From: Desulfobacterales bacterium
Lineage (GTDB): Bacteria > Desulfobacterota > Desulfobacteria > Desulfobacterales > UBA5852
Length of the DNA: 64,000 nucleotides
Assembly: GCA_963674755.2 (NCBI GenBank)
Contig: CAXXVS010000001.1
Location: 1,056,001-1,120,000 of the forward strand
Reading direction: 5' to 3'
Made by a program: the position numbers and the translations under genes. Shown here one piece after another: positions 53,144 to 64,000 of the stretch (positions within the stretch are counted from its first letter, which is position 1; each line of letters opens with the position of its first letter). The notes under the pieces are model-generated. The model was given only the letters and a program-made list of their open reading frames with translations. It was not told where the DNA came from and did no database searches.

Positions 53144-54856
53144 ATGACGATGGTCACAAGAAGGAATCGGTCCATGCCTATCCACGGCAAAGACGAAGAT
53201 CTTCCGGCCATTCTGGCGCGTTGTTTGGATACCCTGCAGTCCGCATGGGACGATGCGCGGGCGCCCGCCGCGCGGGAGGCGCTGATCCGGGATCTCCGTC
53301 TGGCGGTCACCCGGGCGGAGCGGGCCCTGGCGGAGCGGGAACGCATCGATGAAGAGCGCACCCGCCTGGCCACGGCCGTGGACCAGGCCAGCGAGCTGAT
53401 CTTTATCACGGATACCGAAGGCCTCATCCAATACGTCAATCCTTCCTTTGAAAAAGTCACGGGCTATACCCGGGCGGAAGTCCTGGGCCGCAAACCCTCC
53501 CTGCTCAGAAGCGGTAAACACGACCCGGCCTTTTATGCCGGCATGTGGTCCACCATCGCACGCGGCGCGGTCTGGAACGGCCGGATCGTCAATCGCAAGA
53601 AAGACGGGACGCTCTACGAGGAAGAGGCCACCATCACCCCCATCCGGGACCACACCGGCCGTATCGTCAGCTATGTGGCCGTCAAGCGGGACGTCACCCG
53701 GGAGATTACCCTGAAAAAGCAGCTGCGCCAGGCCCAGAAGATGGAAGCCATCGGCACACTGGCCGGGGGGATCGCCCACGACTTCAACAACATCCTGGCG
53801 GCCATCATCGGCTACACCGAACTGGTCCGCATGGATCTGGCGGAAGACAGCGCCCTCATGGCGAACGTCAACAAGGTTCTCGGCGCCAGCTACCGGGCCC
53901 GGGATCTGGTGGCCCAGATTCTGGCCTTCAGCCGCCAGACCGAACAGGAATTGAAACCGGTCAGCATCAGCGCCATCGTCAAGGAGGCCCTCAAACTGCT
54001 GCGGGCCTCCCTGCCGGTCACCATTGAAATCCGACAGCGGATTTGTATGGAGCCCGCCACCATTCTGGCCGATGCCACCCAGATCCATCAGGTGCTCATG
54101 AATATCTGCACCAATGCCGGTCATGCCATGCGGTTGACCGGCGGGATTCTCGACGTCTATCTGGGCGAGCCCCGGGAAGAATTCGAACCACCGCTGCCCC
54201 TGCAGCACCTGGCTGCGGATCATTATCTGTGCCTTGCCATCCGGGATACCGGACACGGCATGTCCCCCGAGGTGCTGGAACGGATTTTCGACCCCTATTT
54301 CACCACCAAGAAAAAGGAAGAGGGGACCGGACTCGGCCTGGCCGTGGTGCACGGCATCGTCACCAGCCACAACGGCCATATCACCGTCGAGAGTACGCCG
54401 GGGCAAGGCACGGTTTTCAAGATCTACTTTCCGTTTATTCCGGCCAAGGTTTTCGATCACAAAAAAACCATGGGATCGCGGTTGCCCGGAGGGACGGAGC
54501 GCGTGCTGCTCATCGACGACGAGGTCGATATCGTGCATGTGAACCGCCTGATGCTCGAACGTCTGGGCTATACCGTGTCCGCTTACAGCGACAGCCACAA
54601 GGCGGTGGCCGCTTTCGAAAGCGATCCGCAAAGCATCGACCTGCTGATCACGGACATGACCATGCCGGGGCTGACCGGCGACCTGGTGGTGCGGGCCGTC
54701 CACGCCCGGCGTCCGGATCTGCCCATCATCATGTGTACGGGCTTCAGCGAAATTATCACGGCGGAGAAGGCCCAGGCCCTGGGGGTGCGCAAGTTGATGA
54801 TGAAACCCCTGTTGGTGGGGGAGTTGGCGCGGTCGATTCGGGAGTTGCTGGATTGA
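53144..54856 (+). CDS. hybrid sensor kinase (PAS-HisKA-HATPase-REC)
   Basis: PAS domain; [10 protein letters not shown] box, DTGHG, FTTK and GTGLGL; receiver DD...TDMTMP...KP. Start may be 53174. Confidence 0.93.
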
Positions 54857-54979: not shown

Positions 54980-55972
54980 TCAGGGTCGGGCGCGGTTGAG
55001 GCCCACGAAGGCCCCGCCGTTGCGTTCGCACATGGCACGCATGAGGGTGGCGAAGCGCAGGCCGGTGATGCCACGGGGGTCGCGGAGCACGGTGGGGAAG
55101 CCCACGGCGTGGATGCGTACCCGGCGCTGGCCGCCCGGGCCGGCGTGGTTGAGCCGGTCCACGGTGTTGATGGCAGCCTGCATGTCCTTGCCGGAATACT
55201 CGTCCCCGAAGACATAGAGGCTGATCTTCTTCCGGGGATCGTAGAAGGCGCGGATGGCCATGGCGATGCCCTCCACCGGGCTGCTGTTGCTGAAGGGCTG
55301 CCAGGTGGCCAGGGTTTCCAGGATCACCCGCCGGCGGCGGGCCGTGTCCGGAATCCAACGACCGCGGTATTGCGGGAACATATAGTCCCCCATGTCATTC
55401 ATGATCTGGATGCCTTTCACCTTGGGGTAGACGTTGAGCGTTTCGCGCAGTTTCTGCTGCACGCTGCCCCAGGCGCCCCGCTGCATGCTGCCGGAGGTGT
55501 CGATGATGAAAATGATGTACTCGCTGTCCACCGGGATGCCTCCCACCGAAGCGCTGGGGGGAGGCGGCCGGCGGGCGGCGAGGCGCTTCATCTCCGCGGT
55601 GAGGTCCTGCAGGGTGCGGGCCATGCGGCCTTCGATGATGTTCTGCACCTCGGCGTTGTCGCGGGAGGCGGCAAATTCCCCTTTCAGGGAAGACAAATCC
55701 CCCTGCAACCGGGCCAGGTGTTCCTGGGCTGCGGTGAGCTGCCGGCGCTTGGCCTCGAGCTCCCGCTCCAGCACGAGGGATTCGCCTCGGATATCGTGTT
55801 TTTCCTCCTCCAGCCGAACGATGGCCGCATCCAGGTCGGTGCGGGTCTGTTCGATCACCAGGGGCTCGCCGAACTTGGAGAGCACGAAAAGCAGGATGAT
55901 GGCCCCGAAGGCGCAGCAGATGCAGTCCAGGAAGGAGAGGCTGAAGACGTGGATTTCGCGGCGGGTGCGCAT
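54980..55972 (-). CDS. membrane-anchored coiled-coil vWA protein with ExbD/MotB-like N-terminal TM
   Basis: FSLSFLDCICCAFGAIILLF TM with Asp; coiled coil; MIDAS DTSGS. Confidence 0.8.
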   Translation of the reverse strand: MRTRREIHVFSLSFLDCICCAFGAIILLFVLSKFGEPLVIEQTRTDLDAAIVRLEEEKHDIRGESLVLERELEAKRRQLTAAQEHLARLQGDLSSLKGEFAASRDNAEVQNIIEGRMARTLQDLTAEMKRLAARRPPPPSASVGGIPVDSEYIIFIIDTSGSMQRGAWGSVQQKLRETLNVYPKVKGIQIMNDMGDYMFPQYRGRWIPDTARRRRVILETLATWQPFSNSSPVEGIAMAIRAFYDPRKKISLYVFGDEYSGKDMQAAINTVDRLNHAGPGGQRRVRIHAVGFPTVLRDPRGITGLRFATLMRAMCERNGGAFVGLNRARP

Positions 55973-55974
55973 GA

Positions 55975-57063
55975 TCAGGGCCAGTCCGGTGAGGGGCAGA
56001 AGTAGGCGCCCCGGGTAAGGACGGCCAGCTGCCAGTAGGCGCTGGCCGCCGCCGGATCCCCTTCCAGGGGGAAGAGGATGACGTTGACCGGAATGTCGGG
56101 CAGCATCTTGACCGCCTCGTTGAACAGGCTGAGGCGTTTTTCGCCGGAGACTTTCTTGAACCAGGGCGTGCCACTGCCCATGGTGGGCAGGCCGTCCGTG
56201 ATCAGGAAGACGTTTTCGGGCATTGGCCGCAGCTTGCGCAGTTCCGCAAAGGCGTTGGCCAGGCTGGTGCTCTTCTCCGGCACCAGTTGGTAGAGACGGT
56301 TGACCGCGTCGTTGAGCTGCTTGCTATCGGCGGTTTTAAGCCAGCGGCCGTCGGTGCCCGGCACCAGAAAACGCGCGGTCTCGTTGAAGACGACGATCTG
56401 GTAGCGGCTTCCCGGCGGGAACTGGGCTGTCAGCCAGTCCACCGTGGCCAGCGCCTTGCGCCACTTGGGGGCCTGGCGCTGCTGGTCTTTGGCCAGGTTG
56501 CGGCGGCGGACGATGCCCACGATGGAATGGTCCAGCATGCTGGCCGAGGCATCCAGCAGAATCAGAATATGGCCGCCGTCCACCCGCAGATCGGTGAGAT
56601 ACTGGCGGCGGCCCTCCCCGGCAAAGGCGCGGACCTTGGACCCGTAGTCGTCTTCCTCCTGGCTGCCGGCTTTGAGCCGTTTGACGTCTTCTTCCATGGA
56701 ACGCAGGTCGGCCTTGAGTTGGTCGGCATGTTCCTTCCGGGCCAGGGTCTGGTCCTGGTAGTGGGCGATTTCTTCCTGGCGCGCCTCGAGGACGGGCACG
56801 ATCTGGCGGGTGGTGCCGCGGATGTCGACGATTTCCTGCTCGGCCGCTTCCAGGGCGTTGCGCAGGTCGGCCATGCGCTTGCGCCCATCCAGAACCTCGC
56901 GCTCCAGCCGGTCCACTTCACTGCTCAGGTCCTGGGTGATCTGGTCGCGGCGGACGGCCGAACGGGCGTTGACGATGACGAACAGCAGAATGACGGCCCC
57001 CAGACCGCAGCAGATGCAGTCGATGAAGGAGAGGCTGAAGACGTTAAGCGGCCGGCGTTTCAT
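55975..57063 (-). CDS. second membrane-anchored coiled-coil vWA protein
   Basis: FSLSFIDCICCGLGAVILLF TM; coiled coil; MIDAS DASAS...TDG. Confidence 0.8.
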   Translation of the reverse strand: MKRRPLNVFSLSFIDCICCGLGAVILLFVIVNARSAVRRDQITQDLSSEVDRLEREVLDGRKRMADLRNALEAAEQEIVDIRGTTRQIVPVLEARQEEIAHYQDQTLARKEHADQLKADLRSMEEDVKRLKAGSQEEDDYGSKVRAFAGEGRRQYLTDLRVDGGHILILLDASASMLDHSIVGIVRRRNLAKDQQRQAPKWRKALATVDWLTAQFPPGSRYQIVVFNETARFLVPGTDGRWLKTADSKQLNDAVNRLYQLVPEKSTSLANAFAELRKLRPMPENVFLITDGLPTMGSGTPWFKKVSGEKRLSLFNEAVKMLPDIPVNVILFPLEGDPAAASAYWQLAVLTRGAYFCPSPDWP

Positions 57064-58462
57064 CGTTTTCCCGGCAGGCAATCACCTGCAGCGTTTCGCC
57101 CGGGGTTCCCACCCGGATGGTCTGCCCCACGGTCAATTCGGTTTCGCCGTCCACCTTGTCACCGTCCACGTAGGTGCCGTAGGTGCTGGTATCGCTGAGC
57201 ACCAGGCGATCCCCCCGGCGGGTCACGATGCAGTGGCGGCGGGAGACCCCGGCGGTTTTGCCCTGGATAAGGATGCCGGCGCAGCCGGCCGGGATGTCGC
57301 GGCCGATGATCAGCGGACGCTCTGACAGGGGATACCCCCGGCTGCAATACAGGAGATGGGTGGCGGCCGGCTCCTGGTCCGTGGCATGCCCGGGGGAGGG
57401 GACGGCCGCGGGCGGCCTTTTGCCCTTGCGCGGTCGGCGGTTGAGCAAGGGCACACCCTGGCCGGCCTCCCCGGGTGGGAAGGCCTTTGCGAAGGCAAGC
57501 ACCCCTGACGCGGCGGCCCCTTGGGCCAACGGCACCACCCGGGCGCCGACGGCGGCCGCCAGGCGGCGGCTAAAGCCGGGCAGACAAGAGGCGCGGTGGC
57601 TCACGAGAATCGTTTCCAGGGGGTGCCCATGGAAAAAATCCTGCTGCAAGGCACCGATCTCACGCTGGAGGGCCTCCATCAAGGGGTGCAGGGCCTGTTC
57701 CACCACCTCCCGGGTCAACTGAATGCGGTGCACGGCGGCGGGCGTGTCCATCGCCACGGCGACCTCTTCGGAGGTTTCCAGGGCGGCCAGCAGGCCCGGC
57801 AGTTGGTCGTAGAGGGCCTGCTCGGTGTCGGCGGCATGGAAAGGATCGAAACGGGTGTGGCGCACGAATTCGTCGGCCATGGCCTGCATCCAGGCCTTCC
57901 GCAGGGCTTCCAGGCCCAGGCCTGCGATGGCCGTCTTCTCCGGATGGACGGCCTCCCGGCGCAAGTTCAGCACGGTCAGGAGGGTTTGGTGCAAGCCGAG
58001 GTCGAGGTGCAGCAGGATTTCGGCCGGGGCATTTGGCGGGAGGGCCGCCAGGGACAGGGGCACGAAGCCCTGGACGGGCATCGCTAGCGCGTTCATGATG
58101 CCCGCCAGCAGTCCCAGCTGGTGTTCGCTGAAGCTATCCGGTACCGCCACCAGAAGCGCCTCACGGGCCGGGGCCAGTTGCTGCCAGATATGGGACAGGT
58201 GGGCGTGGGCCAGGTCGGCCTGGGTCCAGCCGGCATAGGCCGGATCCTGCAGGGGATCACTGGCCAATTCACTCCAGAAATGGCGGTTGATCTGACGCGG
58301 CAGCCGCCGGCAGCGCTTTTCAGCAGCGAGGCCCACCCGGAGGCGGCCTTCCTCGATGAGGGCCACCCCGGGGCTGGCCGTCGCTCCCCGCTCGATCTCC
58401 AACAAATCCCCTTCGGGGCCGGCCGCCAGGAGCCCGGCATCGTTGAGTTCCAGCCCGATCAT
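57044..58462 (-). CDS. FHA-domain protein with a degenerate actin/Hsp70-like N-terminal region
   Basis: Start MIGLELNDAG overlaps the upstream stop as ATGA; C-terminal IIGR...SRRHC...D.STYGT.V.G FHA motif. Confidence 0.8.
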   Translation of the reverse strand: MIGLELNDAGLLAAGPEGDLLEIERGATASPGVALIEEGRLRVGLAAEKRCRRLPRQINRHFWSELASDPLQDPAYAGWTQADLAHAHLSHIWQQLAPAREALLVAVPDSFSEHQLGLLAGIMNALAMPVQGFVPLSLAALPPNAPAEILLHLDLGLHQTLLTVLNLRREAVHPEKTAIAGLGLEALRKAWMQAMADEFVRHTRFDPFHAADTEQALYDQLPGLLAALETSEEVAVAMDTPAAVHRIQLTREVVEQALHPLMEALQREIGALQQDFFHGHPLETILVSHRASCLPGFSRRLAAAVGARVVPLAQGAAASGVLAFAKAFPPGEAGQGVPLLNRRPRKGKRPPAAVPSPGHATDQEPAATHLLYCSRGYPLSERPLIIGRDIPAGCAGILIQGKTAGVSRRHCIVTRRGDRLVLSDTSTYGTYVDGDKVDGETELTVGQTIRVGTPGETLQVIACRENDETPAA

Positions 58463-59283
58463 GCGGCGTCCTCCTCCCCGCGGCGGGTATGCAGCCGCCG
58501 GGTGAGCCGCTCCTCGCAATAGGCTTCGGTATCCAAAATGTAGCGCTCCTGCAGCAGTTGCAGCTGGTAGAGGAGAAACATGAGCACGATGCTGATGAGC
58601 AGGGCCACCAGGGTGGAGTTGAAGGCCACCCCCAGGCTGCGGGTGACTTCCAGGATATCCCCCTGGACGGCCTTGTGCGCATTGCCCAGGGCCTGGCCGA
58701 TGCCGCGTACCGTGCCGATAAAGCCCACAGACGGGATGGCCCAGGCGATGTAGCGGATCATGGCCAGTTCGGCGTCCAGCCGTTCCCCTTCCGTGTCGCA
58801 GGAGGCGTGCATGGCATTGGCCACGTCCTGGATGTTGCGGGTGGACCCGAAACGGTGCAGGGCCGCCAGCAGGGTCCGGGGCAGGAGTGATTCCCGCTGG
58901 GCCGGCGGCAGGGCTTCGATGCGGCGGGAAAAGGCGAGGGCGTCCTCCGGCAGGATGCGGACCCCCTCGGCCAGGGGAATCAGGTCGAGATTGAGCAGGC
59001 CGCGATGCTTTAAGGTCGCAACGCTTTTATAGCCCATGATGGCCAGGGCCCAGAACATGAGGATGAAACAGGATTCCTGTTCGTAGTCCTTGATCATGAC
59101 AAACAAGGATTGTTCGCTGGTGGTTGTGCCTTCGGCGGCCTGGGCCGTCTCCTGGGCGTCTTGGAAGGCGGCCGCATTAGGCCGGATGACGGCCACATAG
59201 GCGGCATGCACCAGGATAACGATCACGATCAGGGCGAAGATCTGGTAGATGAATTCCAGCGAAACGGGGAGATTTTGTTTCAT
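58459..59283 (-). CDS. MotA/TolQ/ExbB proton-channel family protein
   Basis: AIPSVGFIGTVRGI...LGVAFNSTLVAL TM pair. Confidence 0.9.
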   Translation of the reverse strand: MKQNLPVSLEFIYQIFALIVIVILVHAAYVAVIRPNAAAFQDAQETAQAAEGTTTSEQSLFVMIKDYEQESCFILMFWALAIMGYKSVATLKHRGLLNLDLIPLAEGVRILPEDALAFSRRIEALPPAQRESLLPRTLLAALHRFGSTRNIQDVANAMHASCDTEGERLDAELAMIRYIAWAIPSVGFIGTVRGIGQALGNAHKAVQGDILEVTRSLGVAFNSTLVALLISIVLMFLLYQLQLLQERYILDTEAYCEERLTRRLHTRRGEEDAA

Positions 59284-59448
59284 TAAGCCATACCTATTGT
59301 TGAAGTAAGCTTCTGGATGCCTTGCGCTTGAACGTTTTCGAAACCCTGGTCAGAATGATTTCTTGCTCTCTAACGCGGTCGTGGTTCTTCGCAGCCCATG
59401 CAAGGCCTAATCCTTTCATCAAGCAACAGTATCAAAATATACCTAAAC

Positions 59449-59594
59449 AGTATCTGTTCGGAGAGGGTAGATTTCGGTTCCGGCCAAGGCCGCAGGGAAT
59501 TGGAAACCGGAGGCGTAGCTGGGCTACGGCGAGGATTTCCAATGACCGAGAACGCCAGCCGGGGCCGAAAGATGCCCCCTCCGGACGGATACTA
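59449..59594. repeat. intergenic palindromic element, family A copy 5 (reverse orientation)
   Basis: AGTATCTGTTCGGAGAGGG / CCCCCTCCGGACGGATACT ends; CGTAGC-tgg-GCTACG core; the end overlaps the TAG of the upstream gene. Confidence 0.85.
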
Positions 59595-59897
59595 GATGTC
59601 TGCCGGGAAGTCCACGGCCTTATCCACCCGGATTTCTTCGGACGGTTCAAAGGGTTTCAGGTTGTCCTTTTGTTTGCGATAGGCGCTGCCCTGCTCTGGG
59701 GGGGGCTGCGCCATGTCGGTTGCGGTGCCCTTGGGCGGTGCGGCCTTGTCGGCACGCTGTTCCGTCTGTTGCGGGACCTCCCCGGCGGGTGCGGTCTGGG
59801 CCAAAACCAGCGGCGGCGGCCCGCTCAGCAGCAGGAGGATCATCACACCAGCGCCACAGGCCAGGCGTCGGCAGCTGAAAAAGCGTTTGATCGTCAT
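59592..59897 (-). CDS. small exported protein with C-terminal FEPSEEI..D..VDFP.DI motif
   Basis: ATG at 59897 overlaps the upstream stop as ATGA; signal peptide ending VLA-Q; low-complexity linker; 101 aa. Confidence 0.7.
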   Translation of the reverse strand: MTIKRFFSCRRLACGAGVMILLLLSGPPPLVLAQTAPAGEVPQQTEQRADKAAPPKGTATDMAQPPPEQGSAYRKQKDNLKPFEPSEEIRVDKAVDFPADI

Positions 59898-62056
59898 GGG
59901 GTACTCCCGGCCGCTTCGGCATAGCGGCAGATGCGGAAGCCCAGGTCCGGACGGGCTTCGTCCTGGTAATCCCGGTAGGCGGCCCGCAGGGTGCGGATGG
60001 AGGCGTCCTGCCAGCTGCTGCCCCGGATGACGTGGTGCTGGCCCTGGGCCGGGCCGCTGGGATCGGTGGCCACCAGACCGGGCTGGGCCGGATAGATGCT
60101 GTAAAAATCGTGGCACCATTCGGCCACGTTGCCCCCCAGGTCGTACAGGCCGTCGGGGTTGGGGGCAAAGGATCCCACCGGGGATGCGGTGGGAAAGGTA
60201 TCGTCGTATTTTTCCACCACCAGGTTCAACAGACGCGCGGCGCTGGCATCGGCGATATTGACGCTTTGGGCCGGGGGCGGGTAGCCCGTGCCCCAGGGGT
60301 ATTTCCAGCCCCGGGCGGCGGCCCCGTAACGGGCGCAAAATTCCCACTCGGCCTCGGTGGGCAGCCGGTAGCCGTTGCCCATGGGATCCGTTGGCCTGAG
60401 TTTGCCGTCGGTTTCTTTGTACACCGGTTTGAGGCCTTCCTGGCGGCTCAGCCAGTTGCAGAAACGGGCGGCCTGCTCCCAGGTGACCTGCGCCACCGGC
60501 TGGTCATCCAGATTCAGCGGGGCACCCTTGAACGAGCCGGAATCGTGGGCCGGATCAAAGGCCCGGAATTCCCGGTTGCTGACTTCCTTGAGGCCCATGA
60601 AGAACGGCCGTGTCAACAGGATCAGCCGCAGGGTCTCGTTGGCGCGCCGGCCCTGCTCGCGCCGGGAGGCCCCCATTTGAAAGCGGGCCGGGGCGATCAG
60701 TTTCAGGCGGTACCCGTCGGCCGCCCGGATGATCCCCGGGACCTGGGTGGCGTTGGTCCGTTGGAGGCCGGCCTTTAGTTCGAGGGGGAACCCCGGCCGG
60801 GGCGTGACCTGGTGAATGACGGGGGTAAACCCTTCCTTGCGGATCTCGATGCGGTGGGGCACGGCCAGCAGGGTAAGCTGTTCCGGGACCGGGCCCTGGT
60901 CGCGGCCGTCCACCCGGAGAGTGGCCCCCGGCGGTGCGCCGCGCAGATAGAGGATGCCCCGGCGCGGCGCCAGCTCCACCTGGAGGGCGGTTTCCTCGCC
61001 CGACCGCAAGGTGACCTCCCGGGCGGCAGGGGCATAGCCGGCCTTGGAGAGCTGAACCTTGTGGGGTTGGTCCGGCGGCAGATCGATGGTCAGGGGGGTT
61101 TGGCCGTGATACCGGGTGCCCACCATGACGCTGGCGCCCTCCGGCTGTGAATTGACGACCAGACGGCCGTCCAGGGGCGCCAGGACCGCGGTTTCCAGGG
61201 TGAGGGGCGATCCGGCCGTGACCGGCACGGTTCGGGTCCAGGGCTTGTAGCCCGGGTGCTGCAATTCCAGCTGACGCGGGCCGGCCGCCATGGCCAGGGT
61301 GGCCGGGGTGAGGCCCTGGCGGACGCCATCCACCTGGATGACGGCCTCCGGAGGGTCCGAGCTTACGGTAACCCGGGCATAATCGGGCGTCAGCGCATAG
61401 GTCAGGCCCTGCCGGTGTTCCATGCCCTCCACCGTCAGGGGGGTTTCCAGCGGGCGGTAGAGATCGGCTTCGATGCGCAGCTGGTGTTCTCCGGCGGGGA
61501 CCGGCCGATCCTTCAGTGGCGTGACGCCCGCGTCGCTTCCGTCGATGAAAACCCGGGCCCGTTCGATCGCGAGATCGGGCTGGCCCGCCTCGTGGGCGCT
61601 GATGTCCAGGCGGCCCGGCAACTTCTCCAGGGTCAGGGTGAGGGTCTGGCGGTCCTGGTTTGCCACCACCACATCGGTTGCCAGCGGTGTATACCCGGTT
61701 TTGACGGCGCGGATGTGATAGGTACCGGGGCGCAGCAGATAATAGCCGCGCAGCTGCGGGGTCAGCCAGGCGCCCTGGAGATCCACCCGGTCGGGCTCCG
61801 GCTGGATATCGAGCCGCAGCTGGCGGGCCGTGAAGACGAACCATAGACTGTAGAGGAGCACCGCCAGGAGGGCGGCGGCCAGCAGGCTGACAGACAGTCG
61901 GTAGGATGAAGCGCGAACAGGCGGCGCCTGGTGGGCCGGCTCGAAGGGGAAGGGCTCGATCCTCCGGGGCGCGCTTAGGTCCGGCGGCGTGGTGCGGCGG
62001 ACGCTTTTAGCCGCATCCTGTGGAGGTGCGGCAGGATCTATATCTTTTCCGTGCAT
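59894..62056 (-). CDS. membrane-anchored PEGA-repeat protein with a C-terminal FGE-sulfatase (SUMF1-like) domain
   Basis: TM helix; several S.P.GA.V.VDG...G.TP repeats; F.MG, RLPTEAEWE, N..GLYD..GNVAEW, RGSSW and GFR motifs. Confidence 0.9.
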   Translation of the reverse strand: MHGKDIDPAAPPQDAAKSVRRTTPPDLSAPRRIEPFPFEPAHQAPPVRASSYRLSVSLLAAALLAVLLYSLWFVFTARQLRLDIQPEPDRVDLQGAWLTPQLRGYYLLRPGTYHIRAVKTGYTPLATDVVVANQDRQTLTLTLEKLPGRLDISAHEAGQPDLAIERARVFIDGSDAGVTPLKDRPVPAGEHQLRIEADLYRPLETPLTVEGMEHRQGLTYALTPDYARVTVSSDPPEAVIQVDGVRQGLTPATLAMAAGPRQLELQHPGYKPWTRTVPVTAGSPLTLETAVLAPLDGRLVVNSQPEGASVMVGTRYHGQTPLTIDLPPDQPHKVQLSKAGYAPAAREVTLRSGEETALQVELAPRRGILYLRGAPPGATLRVDGRDQGPVPEQLTLLAVPHRIEIRKEGFTPVIHQVTPRPGFPLELKAGLQRTNATQVPGIIRAADGYRLKLIAPARFQMGASRREQGRRANETLRLILLTRPFFMGLKEVSNREFRAFDPAHDSGSFKGAPLNLDDQPVAQVTWEQAARFCNWLSRQEGLKPVYKETDGKLRPTDPMGNGYRLPTEAEWEFCARYGAAARGWKYPWGTGYPPPAQSVNIADASAARLLNLVVEKYDDTFPTASPVGSFAPNPDGLYDLGGNVAEWCHDFYSIYPAQPGLVATDPSGPAQGQHHVIRGSSWQDASIRTLRAAYRDYQDEARPDLGFRICRYAEAAGSTP

Positions 62057-64000
62057 TGAATCACGACCTGGGTTGGCCCCTGACCGGGGCGGATGCGGAG
62101 CGTATGGCGCACGTCCTTGTAGCCGTCCCGGGCTCCAGCAATGGTGTAGGTGCCCGGGCGCAGTTCCAGCTGGCGGGTCGCAAACTGCCCCAACCGGCCG
62201 ATCCGATAGACGGTCACCACGGTCTGTTCATCGGATTTGAGGGTGACCACGACCGGGGTGCGGGCATTCTGCACCATCCGCTCCAGGGATGCAATCTGGG
62301 ATTGCAGGTGCGGCCCCCGGGGATCCAGGCGCTTCAGCTCGGTCAGCAGGTCCTCGGCCTCGGCCAGATAGGCGTCATGTCCCAGGTCGTCCGGATGGTC
62401 CATGTAGTAGGTCACCCGTTTTTCAAGGCGCAGCCGTTCCCCGGTCCGAACCACTCCCTGGGCGGCAAAGCGGACAGCCGGATCGATGCCCTGCACCTGG
62501 CGGTAGTATGCCAGGGCCTGGTCCCAGGCCTCATCGGACTCGGCCTTGCCGGCCAGCGTTCTTAGACGGGCGATGCGGTCCTCGCGGGCGGCGGTCTCGA
62601 TCTGGGTGAGGGCGTCGCGGGCTTCCGGGGCCTGTGGGTTAAAGGTCAGGGCCTTGTCGATTTCCCGCCGGGCCTCGTCATAGGCTTTACGGCCCAGCGC
62701 TGTCAGGCCGGCCGACATGTGGCGCTGGAACTGGTCGGCGGCAATCTGGTCCCGGACGCGGGGCACGGCCGTCCGGGCCGGCTGCCAGTCCGGATCCAGC
62801 GCCAGGGCGGCTTCGTAATCCGTCAGGGCCAGGGCCAGGCGGCCGGCGGTTTCCTGGGCCGCACCGGATGCCATCAGGGCGGTCACTTCCGCCACCTTGG
62901 CGGCCCGTGCGAGTCCCTCGCGGGCCACGCTGTTCTGAGGATCGATTTTAAGGGCCAGTTCGAAACTCCGTTTTGATTCGGCGCCGTCCCCCGCTTCCAG
63001 GGCCGCCCGGCCTTCCGCCAGGAGTCGGACCAGGGCTTCCGGGGCCCGGGCCGCAAGTTGACGCGCATCCCGCGCGGCAGTGGCGTAGTGCTCGGCTGCC
63101 GCGGCGAAGTCGGCCGCCAGGAAGGCTGCATCGCCGGCGTCGGCCTGTGCGCTGAGGGCGGCAAAGGCGTCCGCCCCCCATTGGGGTCCCCCGATGGCTT
63201 CAAGGTCGGTTTGGGCCTGACGCCAGTCGGCCAGCGCCTGTTCCGCTGTGTTCTCATCGACCGCCGACGGGGCGGAGGGGGCTACGGCCGCCGGCCGCGA
63301 TGGGGGCGGGGCGGGTTTTTCAGGGGTCGTGAGGGCGGCGGGTTTGGGCACCCATGGATGGCTTGCCAGATAGTGGAGCAGCCATCCACCCCCGGCCAGG
63401 AGCATGAGCCCCATCAGACCGAGGAAAACAGGGGCGCGCCACCCGGAACGTTTCGTCCCGGCGGGGTGGTCTTCAGGCCCTGTAAACGGCTGGGGGGCGA
63501 TGACGGTGGCCGCGGACCCGGAGGCCACTTCACGCCGTTCCGCTGTTTCGCCAGACGGAGGGATGGTTCGGCGGTCATGACGGGCCAGGAGCTGGTCCAG
63601 GGCGGCGGCCACGGCGGCCATGTCCCCGGGACGGTCTTCCCGCCGTTCGGCCAGGGTGCCGGCCAGCCATTCGATCCACTCGGCCGGTGCGCCGTTCCGG
63701 TCCTGGAGAGACCGCCGCAGGGCCGCGCGGCGCGCCTCGGGTTCAGGGGTGTCGTTCGCTGCGGAAGGCTCCAGGGCTTCCAGGAGGAGGACGCCGAAAC
63801 TATAGATGTCGTCGCCGGGGTGGGGCGGCCGGCCGGCGCGCTGCTGGGGGCTCATGCAGAACCGGGAACCGCCGGAATAGCGGATGGCGGGGTCCGACCC
63901 CATCTGCGCGACCCCGGCAATGCCGAAATCGGTCCAGTACGGGCGGGTCTGCCGGTCCAGCAGCAGGTTGCCGGCCTTGACGTCCCGATGGACCAGCCCC
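62038..64000 (-). CDS. Hanks-type Ser/Thr protein kinase with TM and TPR-like extracytoplasmic region (N-terminus beyond window)
   Basis: The frame stays open beyond the track start at 63903: GLVHRDVKAGNLLL...TDFGIA, then MSPQQ and DIYSFG; TM helix; helical repeats. Confidence 0.9.
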   Translation of the reverse strand, partial: GLVHRDVKAGNLLLDRQTRPYWTDFGIAGVAQMGSDPAIRYSGGSRFCMSPQQRAGRPPHPGDDIYSFGVLLLEALEPSAANDTPEPEARRAALRRSLQDRNGAPAEWIEWLAGTLAERREDRPGDMAAVAAALDQLLARHDRRTIPPSGETAERREVASGSAATVIAPQPFTGPEDHPAGTKRSGWRAPVFLGLMGLMLLAGGGWLLHYLASHPWVPKPAALTTPEKPAPPPSRPAAVAPSAPSAVDENTAEQALADWRQAQTDLEAIGGPQWGADAFAALSAQADAGDAAFLAADFAAAAEHYATAARDARQLAARAPEALVRLLAEGRAALEAGDGAESKRSFELALKIDPQNSVAREGLARAAKVAEVTALMASGAAQETAGRLALALTDYEAALALDPDWQPARTAVPRVRDQIAADQFQRHMSAGLTALGRKAYDEARREIDKALTFNPQAPEARDALTQIETAAREDRIARLRTLAGKAESDEAWDQALAYYRQVQGIDPAVRFAAQGVVRTGERLRLEKRVTYYMDHPDDLGHDAYLAEAEDLLTELKRLDPRGPHLQSQIASLERMVQNARTPVVVTLKSDEQTVVTVYRIGRLGQFATRQLELRPGTYTIAGARDGYKDVRHTLRIRPGQGPTQVVIQCTEKI

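Follow-up and report, generated by a model that had tools for sequence, protein, structure and literature searches.

A conserved nine-gene operon from Desulfobacterales with a probable MotA/TolQ-type motor core and two different vWA-tipped subunits

At one end of the 64,000-nucleotide stretch of Desulfobacterales DNA analysed here (the window, G000:C1:1056001-1120000, where G000 is the source genome, 97% complete) lies an operon whose core is very probably a MotA/TolQ-type motor with two different B subunits, each tipped by a vWA domain. The operon comprises nine genes, all on the minus strand, seven of them inside the window and two farther upstream, beyond its edge. From upstream to downstream they encode an acidic protein, a lipoprotein, a transmembrane (TM)-TPR protein fused here to a Ser/Thr kinase, a TM-PEGA-FGE protein, a small protein, the MotA-family channel subunit, an Hsp70-like/FHA protein, vWA_A and vWA_B. 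The operon is real, conserved and uncharacterised, and its function has to be read from its parts. The reading put forward here, tentatively, is an ion-driven 5:2 rotary motor whose vWA_A/vWA_B axle works mechanically against a fixed frame in the outer periplasm, with a kinase-FHA switch limited to some lineages.

The seven window genes are real and single-copy, and most of them overlap. The domain types assigned to these co-oriented genes in the original prediction, made from the sequence alone, are borne out by open reading frames (ORFs) and by Pfam, fold and profile evidence. Families over the Pfam cut-off are MotA_ExbB, FHA, PEGA (five stretches), FGE-sulfatase, Pkinase and, in vWA_A, VWA_2. 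Ion motors of 5:2 composition power flagella, nutrient import, outer-membrane upkeep, gliding, secretion through the type IX system (T9SS) and Zorya defence. An axle carrying ligand-gripping heads would, if true, put the proton gradient to a new use in the periplasm, which has no ATP, in a widespread class.

The channel subunit and its paired vWA partners

The channel subunit (58459-59283, 274 residues) is a divergent member of the MotA/TolQ/ExbB family that matches MotA_ExbB (PF01618) over the cut-off. Its nearest solved relative is TolQ, to which it aligns by profile with a probability of 80.7% and an E-value of 1.3e-5, placing P184, T191 and T224 opposite TolQ P138, T145 and T178. All three residues are retained at the sequence level in 71/71 channel subunits. 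Shared with TolQR, ExbBD and MotAB are thus the channel family, the Pro/Thr/Thr pore residues and a TM Asp in the partner protein. Compared with TolQ, the operon channel has an extra predicted N-terminal TM helix; invariant Arg193 and Asn222, beside the pore threonines, replace TolQ Trp147 and Ile176, and TolQ Glu173 is without a counterpart. These replacements and the lost glutamate may bear on the ion used.

The two partners, encoded side by side across loci, are vWA_A (55975-57063, 362 residues) and vWA_B (54980-55972, 330 residues). Each consists of an N-terminal trans-pore helix, a predicted coiled coil and a vWA head, and the two share about 26% identity. The helix motif reported earlier, FSLSF[LI]DCICC.[FL]GA[IV]ILLF, is exact in both paralogues, placing Asp15 and Cys19 in the helix of vWA_A and Asp16 and Cys20 in that of vWA_B. 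The TM Asp, central to the original prediction, is retained in 80/80 loci for vWA_A, 68/68 for vWA_B and 109/110 distant representatives covering the site, the last taken from among 150 listed representatives of clusters at 50% identity. The heads carry a metal ion-dependent adhesion site (MIDAS), formed by D171-x-S173-x-S175, T266 and D290 in vWA_A and by D158-x-S160-x-S162 plus D257 in vWA_B. Its residues are invariant in both paralogues of the genome loci, and the MIDAS Asp occurs in 139/141 of the distant representatives covering it. vWA_B falls under the Pfam cut-off (E 0.019) although its DxSxS...D motif is intact.

A cysteine four residues past the TM Asp (window positions 55913-55915 in vWA_B and 57007-57009 in vWA_A) is present in 80/80, 68/68 and 110/110 sequences of the same sets, and is missing from a sister type having a single partner. 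Such a cysteine might link the two chains through a disulfide, or serve in the pore as a redox or metal site.

Unlike TolQR, ExbBD and MotAB, the operon has neither an ExbD/TolR or OmpA-like periplasmic domain nor TonB or TolA. Pfam and NCBIfam detect no ExbD, TolR or MotB family among its nine proteins, which have vWA heads instead, and no histidine lies within the TM columns of the vWA alignments, so the SHLS motif is absent. The earlier label ExbD-like holds by position and motif only; homology of the vWA TM helix to TolR was considered and rejected, with no profile alignment found. The proposed MotA ring with two different vWA-tipped B subunits agrees with the Asp, the pore threonines and the fixed gene order, and had already been predicted elsewhere (PMC12204202). 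The assembly of five channel subunits around two helices would follow by analogy with TolQR, ExbBD and MotAB and from that 2025 prediction.

With TolQ as the closest solved relative, the operon could be taken for a Ton-like import energiser, its vWA heads pulling on the plug of a transporter in the outer membrane whose gene lies elsewhere. This is quite improbable. In a search that for TonB covered the nine operon proteins and not the rest of the genome, neither TonB nor TolA was found, consistent with the original prediction. The operon also has no receptor family, the genome has four other MotA/ExbB-family genes, and flanking genes vary among loci.

Gene order, spread and the published class

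Two sets of loci were compared. The genome set, from a scan of species genomes, contains the best 80 of 134 relatives; its loci are 51-93% identical and largely from Desulfobacterales, hence not independent. The metagenome set contains the best 80 of at least 575 loci and was seeded from a different clade. Gene order holds in 80/80 genome loci and in 77/77 metagenome loci with at least two genes, and the region upstream of position 64000 adds the two further operon genes. Across the 37 genome loci spanning that region, the acidic protein is present in 35, the lipoprotein and the TM-TPR protein in 36 each, and the TM-PEGA-FGE protein, MotA and Hsp70/FHA in all 37. The 24 long metagenome loci contain MotA in 24, the four upstream genes in 23, the Hsp70-like gene in 22 and the kinase in none.

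The kinase is fused to the TM-TPR protein in 14/43 scorable genome loci (37/80 being unscorable) and 0/24 long metagenome loci, and its candidacy as a defining part was rejected. Distant loci L083 and L088-L090 have the same core without the kinase and Hsp70/FHA; because they keep the rest, the core comprises eight genes, with the pseudo-Hsp70-FHA gene and the kinase optional. The small protein, tried as a further optional part from L083 and L088, was not accepted as one: its C-terminal motif is present in both, in a short ORF, as well as in 59/59 genome loci with a visible interval and 35/37 metagenome loci. L152 is without the four upstream genes and L013 without the three most upstream, and L091 is cut by a contig end and uninformative.

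The system occurs in 13/41 of the relatives sampled. A class sample gave 10/151 positives, 7 of them of the vWA type; in a phylum sample the channel subunit was found in 7/251 genomes, strongly in 5; and in a sample of the phylum of genome G044 the seed genome alone gave a clear match, with 2/61 at E 0.001. The family comprises 2,233 clusters at 50% identity with E <= 0.001 and 421 at 1e-30. Its taxonomic range, based on protein names plus metagenome loci, includes by protein name Woeseia, Methylophaga, Kordiimonas and Nitrosomonadaceae. Loci L010, L012 and L038 are labelled Gammaproteobacteria or Acidobacteriota yet closely resemble Desulfobacterales loci; the labels may reflect mistakes in binning or naming, and the loci were left out of the range. 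A plasmid search gave no match, and the clusters matched in ESM Atlas were unnamed or vWA only.

The motor core fits a class already described computationally (PMC12204202; Mol Biol Evol 2025;42:msaf138), in which tolQ-like genes found across Proteobacteria accompany heterologous TPH-vWA pairs without exbD, with a conserved Asp, a 5:2 AlphaFold 3 model and no function known. Every sequence-level feature given there for the class is found in the operon: vWA genes linked to a tolQ-like gene (MotA in 37/37 and 24/24 loci), a heterologous vWA pair with no tolR, exbD or motB neighbour, and the shared helix Asp, pore threonines and lack of an SHLS motif. The placement sets the operon beside the Idiomarina seed proteins of the class by description only. 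The core idea is already in print, and the six partner genes were not found described; the main text of that paper, figure 4c aside, does not mention PEGA, formylglycine or a kinase and describes no partner genes. New relative to it are the full parts list, the lipoprotein fold, a predicted FGE contact, a pseudo-ATPase adaptor, the candidate motif for its docking, and optional phospho-control. The parts list plus specific residues make the question left open in the 2025 paper directly testable.

That paper also suggests a role that would make the operon a surface motility or adhesion motor like Myxococcus Agl-Glt, with the vWA heads passing force to a surface adhesin. Agl-Glt, as outlined in PMC11761067, combines AglR5 and an AglQ/AglS heterodimer with TPR scaffolds, FHA domains and the vWA adhesin CglB, and the operon resembles it in having a putative pentamer with a heterodimeric axle, TPR scaffolds and FHA domains beside TM segments. 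In contrast, AglQ and AglS resemble TolR, the vWA lipoprotein CglB sits in the outer membrane whereas the vWA domains of the operon have an inner-membrane tether, and the GltABH barrels are without a counterpart in the operon. No beta-barrel, TonB-C or surface adhesin family occurs in the nine genes, and NCBIfam motility models all fall under their cut-offs, leaving this role improbable.

ZorAB of the Zorya system also combines a MotA-like ring with a B subunit anchoring in the periplasm. A Zorya-type anti-phage system would account for a motor with an unusual B subunit, a patchy distribution and a kinase domain that matches PADLOC kinase models. However, 8/9 proteins, including the channel and both vWA proteins, have no PADLOC match at E 0.001, and the kinase matches the generic kinase domain only. 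The operon matches no Zorya model in PADLOC and lacks both a long ZorA tail and, as the original prediction noted for the window, effector genes (ZorC/D/E); nor does it contain a nuclease, helicase or toxin domain, and its order and sequence are highly conserved. Defence is accordingly the least likely of the functions considered and very hard to reconcile with these parts.

Envelope parts and the cytoplasmic adaptor

The lipoprotein (G000:C1:1120464-1121735, minus strand, 423 residues), encoded upstream of the window, gave no meaningful match by sequence in Pfam or PDB. Its model (predicted local distance difference test, pLDDT, 80) shows an N-terminal alpha/beta domain, a helix at residues 209-284 (about 75 residues) and a hydrophobic hairpin modelled with low confidence. 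By fold, the N-terminal domain matches FlgT, PelC, PqiC-like proteins, TolB-N and CsgG, with top Z-scores of 9.7, 9.4, 9.3 and 8.8; the root-mean-square deviation is 4.7 over 161 aligned residues for FlgT (Z 9.7), 2.5 over 111 for PelC (Z 9.4) and 3.6 over 122 for the curli complex (Z 8.3). Many relatives of the FlgT/PelC/CsgG-type fold form rings under the outer membrane and some do not; TolB-N and LptE have the same alpha/beta fold without rings.

Two inner-membrane proteins accompany it. The TM-PEGA-FGE scaffold (59894-62056, 720 residues) has one TM segment and, in its cytoplasmic tail, the motif I-x-P-x-x-F. Its FGE domain has no Cys in the checked segment in 43/43 rows, a feature shared with PorK (PMC12421860), and its best NCBIfam match is GldK, at 118 bits against a cut-off of 350. 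The kinase-TM-TPR protein (797 residues, with a C-terminal beta domain) runs from 62038 past the window edge at 64000, which cuts the gene, to a start at G000:C1:1120431. In eleven loci (L023, L025, L027, L041-L043, L045, L046, L053, L058 and L071) the TM-PEGA-FGE protein is extended at its N-terminus by a cytoplasmic beta-domain of some 100 residues, which is weakly FHA-like (probability 63%), has no Pfam match and recalls Myxococcus GltG. The same extra domain occurs in L089:4450-6873.

The two remaining envelope parts are secreted proteins with conserved C-termini. The small one (59592-59897, 101 residues) consists of a signal peptide, a variable linker and an acidic C-terminus ending in F-P-x-D-I. 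The acidic one (G000:C1:1121735-1122649, minus strand, 304 residues) has an acidic linker and a conserved C-terminal helical motif with Asp-Asp. Scaffolds and lipoprotein together probably form a trans-envelope frame.

PorK, in a ring that the PorLM motor drives, uses an FGE fold that is non-catalytic (PMC12421860). PorLM-PorKN (GldLM-GldKN) of T9SS shares with the putative operon machine, as a likeness of working only, a 5:2 motor, a dimeric axle with a long periplasmic arm and an FGE hub. The differences are that the operon FGE protein is anchored in the inner membrane by a TM segment where PorK/GldK is a lipoprotein, that the operon motor is of the MotA/TolQ type with an arm of coiled coil plus vWA, and that it has no Sov-like barrel.

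On the cytoplasmic side, the Hsp70-like/FHA protein (57044-58462, 472 residues) has an FHA domain over the Pfam cut-off and an Hsp70-like domain without a Pfam match. The model of the latter (pLDDT 88) matches DnaK and Hsp110 in Foldseek at E-values of about 1e-16 to 1e-18, with a template modelling score of 0.82 on Mycobacterium tuberculosis DnaK, and profile alignment confirms it with a probability of 97%. Alignment with the DnaK proteins of the source genome shows all four ATP motifs to be replaced, namely the two phosphate loops, the catalytic Glu and the adenosine motif. The domain therefore likely serves as a scaffold rather than as an ATPase, with the FHA domain occupying the place of the Hsp70 substrate-binding domain. 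Both single-TM proteins have a short motif before the membrane, and that of the TM-PEGA-FGE tail, [ILV]-x-[PA]-x-x-F, is a candidate docking site for Hsp70-FHA because it co-occurs with the Hsp70-FHA gene.

The canonical phosphothreonine-binding set of FHA domains is G-R, S-R-x-H and N-G. In the source operon G-R388 and S407-R408-x-H410 are kept, with Y428 where Asn is usual. Most members have a degenerate FHA domain, and most kinase-less ones have lost its motif. The kinase, a membrane protein of the Hanks type, has intact catalytic motifs wherever its reading frame is whole, and the clade of the source operon has a T-T-P-P-D-like segment in the FGE-protein tail, which we take to resemble an FHA ligand. 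No phosphatase occurs among the operon genes; two PP2C genes lie elsewhere in the genome. Because the kinase occurs in only some loci, the operon has no phosphatase and the FHA domain is mostly degenerate, phosphorylation cannot be a general switch. The original claim of a system switched by phosphorylation is therefore plausible for the source lineage, as an optional addition, and does not extend to the family.

These regulatory parts raise the alternative of an envelope sensor, in which the channel and the vWA grips would detect strain or damage and signal through Hsp70-FHA and the kinase, in the manner of TagQ-TagR-PpkA-Fha1 or ZorAB. In the H1 type VI secretion system (T6SS) of Pseudomonas aeruginosa, lipoprotein TagQ binds the FGE-type TagR and activates PpkA (PMC13713981), and all four part types of that sensing path, as described there, are present in the operon: a lipoprotein, an FGE-fold protein, a membrane Ser/Thr kinase and an FHA domain. 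A weak predicted contact between the lipoprotein and the FGE domain points the same way, as does a sister clade of MotA, paired with just one TM-Asp protein and situated among kinases, PP2C-like genes and FHA proteins (L084-L086, L093). On the other side, the kinase is missing in 29/43 and 24/24 loci, L083 and L088-L090 dispense with both kinase and Hsp70-FHA while keeping the other eight genes, and the operon differs from the T6SS path in having no TagS/T transporter and no phosphatase. It also has no regulator or effector gene, and the one T6SS sheath marker searched for, PF05943 (VipB), was not found in the 97%-complete genome. A sensor is possible but unlikely.

Proposed mechanism and related motors

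In the mechanism favoured here, five MotA/TolQ-like subunits would enclose two Asp-bearing helices, and ion flow past the Asp pair would turn the A/B axle. At 1.5 A per residue, the predicted coiled coil of some 110-120 residues would raise the MIDAS heads by about 16-18 nm, while the TM-PEGA-FGE, TM-TPR and lipoprotein parts would serve as the fixed frame. The vWA heads would grip acidic motifs, likeliest the C-termini of the two co-encoded secreted proteins, so that these proteins or an outer-membrane layer are pulled or repositioned. In most lineages, the pseudo-ATPase Hsp70-FHA adaptor would dock on the FGE scaffold at its I-x-P-x-x-F tail and organise the cytoplasmic face. Where present, the kinase would likely phosphorylate a tail threonine read by FHA, gating assembly as PpkA-Fha1 gates T6SS. 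By comparison of parts, the layout is most like PorLM-PorKN or Tol and the regulation like TagQR-PpkA-Fha1, and the operon is a member of none of them.

The frame draws in part on one four-chain complex prediction, in which both vWA heads and the FGE domain were modelled with the lipoprotein as partner, alongside three controls. Runs share at least 47% of contacts and partner pLDDT is at least 72. The mark used is reached by 116/157 solved complexes and 2/215 mismatches in a benchmark, where the range at 0.60 or lower holds just 18 solved complexes plus both mismatches. A TagQ-TagR-like contact between lipoprotein and FGE domain is weakly predicted and could be wrong. A vWA-lipoprotein contact receives no support, the score being 0.00 with the FGE chain replaced and both vWA domains present, and this is not evidence against such a contact either.

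Several points weigh against this mechanism. The lipoprotein score of 0.52, compared with 0.01 for the best of the three controls and 0.00 with the FGE chain replaced, falls where the tool is oftener wrong than right unless the contact is likely beforehand, and ring formation by the lipoprotein is suggested by its fold relatives only. That the MIDAS heads grip acidic motifs we infer from general MIDAS chemistry and from conservation, and the ligand named is a candidate. The N-terminal vWA helix shows no similarity to E. coli TolR by profile comparison, and the Asp-to-MIDAS spacing, constant inside the clade at 156 and 142 residues, spans 125-159 residues in distant members. The tail-motif count (71/76 loci with Hsp70-FHA, 0/7 without and 4% in shuffles, six loci with cut or weak tails being left out) carries no kinship correction, and the motif was defined partly on the same data. 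The kinase-FHA link, in which S-R-x-H plus Y428 occur in 15/15 kinase-bearing rows compared with S-R-x-H in 1/25 and Y in 0/25 kinase-less ones (four lacking an FHA state excluded), comes from two separate clades on the tree and so from two independent pairs, with a sign test p of 0.5; the first phosphate-binding Arg occurs in 5/15 and 4/25 rows, respectively. The patchy spread, with 7/251 phylum genomes, argues that the system is not general envelope housekeeping. A literature search, with most subscription journals outside its scope, gave no other account of the class or its partner genes and no phenotype.

The same parts could instead form a hitherto unrecognised proton-powered machine of Gram-negative bacteria for export or outer-membrane assembly, in which the rotating vWA pair would grip secreted clients by an acidic signal at the C-terminus and pass them to or through a ring made of the lipoprotein with its hairpin. 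The F-P-x-D-I and Asp-Asp proteins would then be built-in clients or tethers, and a TagQR-PpkA-like damage signal would activate the machine in the source lineage. If true, MoxR-vWA remodellers would have a counterpart that works in the periplasm without ATP. This is possible but unlikely, and less probable than a motor working against a frame.

Related channel subunits occur beyond the vWA type. A sister channel clade (L084:7216-8836, L085:1080-2674, L086:6734-8334 and L093:8415-10431) has a single TM-Asp coiled-coil partner ending in a small non-vWA domain with weak DUF2135 or DUF5697 matches. Its neighbours include Ser/Thr kinases, in some cases as FGE or PEGA fusions, together with PP2C-like, FHA and vWA-TM-FHA proteins. 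This sister clade recurs with phospho-signalling, and the axle tip appears to be swappable. At L092:8204-10152, a channel relative with a long C-terminal extension has a short ExbD-like partner, with TPR-like proteins adjacent by eye.

Within the window, the 308-nucleotide gap at 59284-59591 contains a palindromic dispersed repeat of about 145 nucleotides (59449-59593) with a strong predicted hairpin (z -5.4). The repeat noticed in the original prediction is real, and it is not operon-specific because 126 BLAST matches occur across the source genome, 92 of them at least 80 nucleotides long; its genome-wide dispersal ruled it out as an operon element. Rfam returned no family of note, and the repeat resembles a miniature inverted-repeat transposable element or repetitive extragenic palindrome; it is a passenger rather than a part of the system. 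Upstream of the acidic protein, the next gene has no relation to the operon and, judged by eye, resembles pyruvate phosphate dikinase. At the other end, a PAS-histidine kinase-receiver hybrid gene (53144-54856, plus strand) is convergent with the last operon gene.

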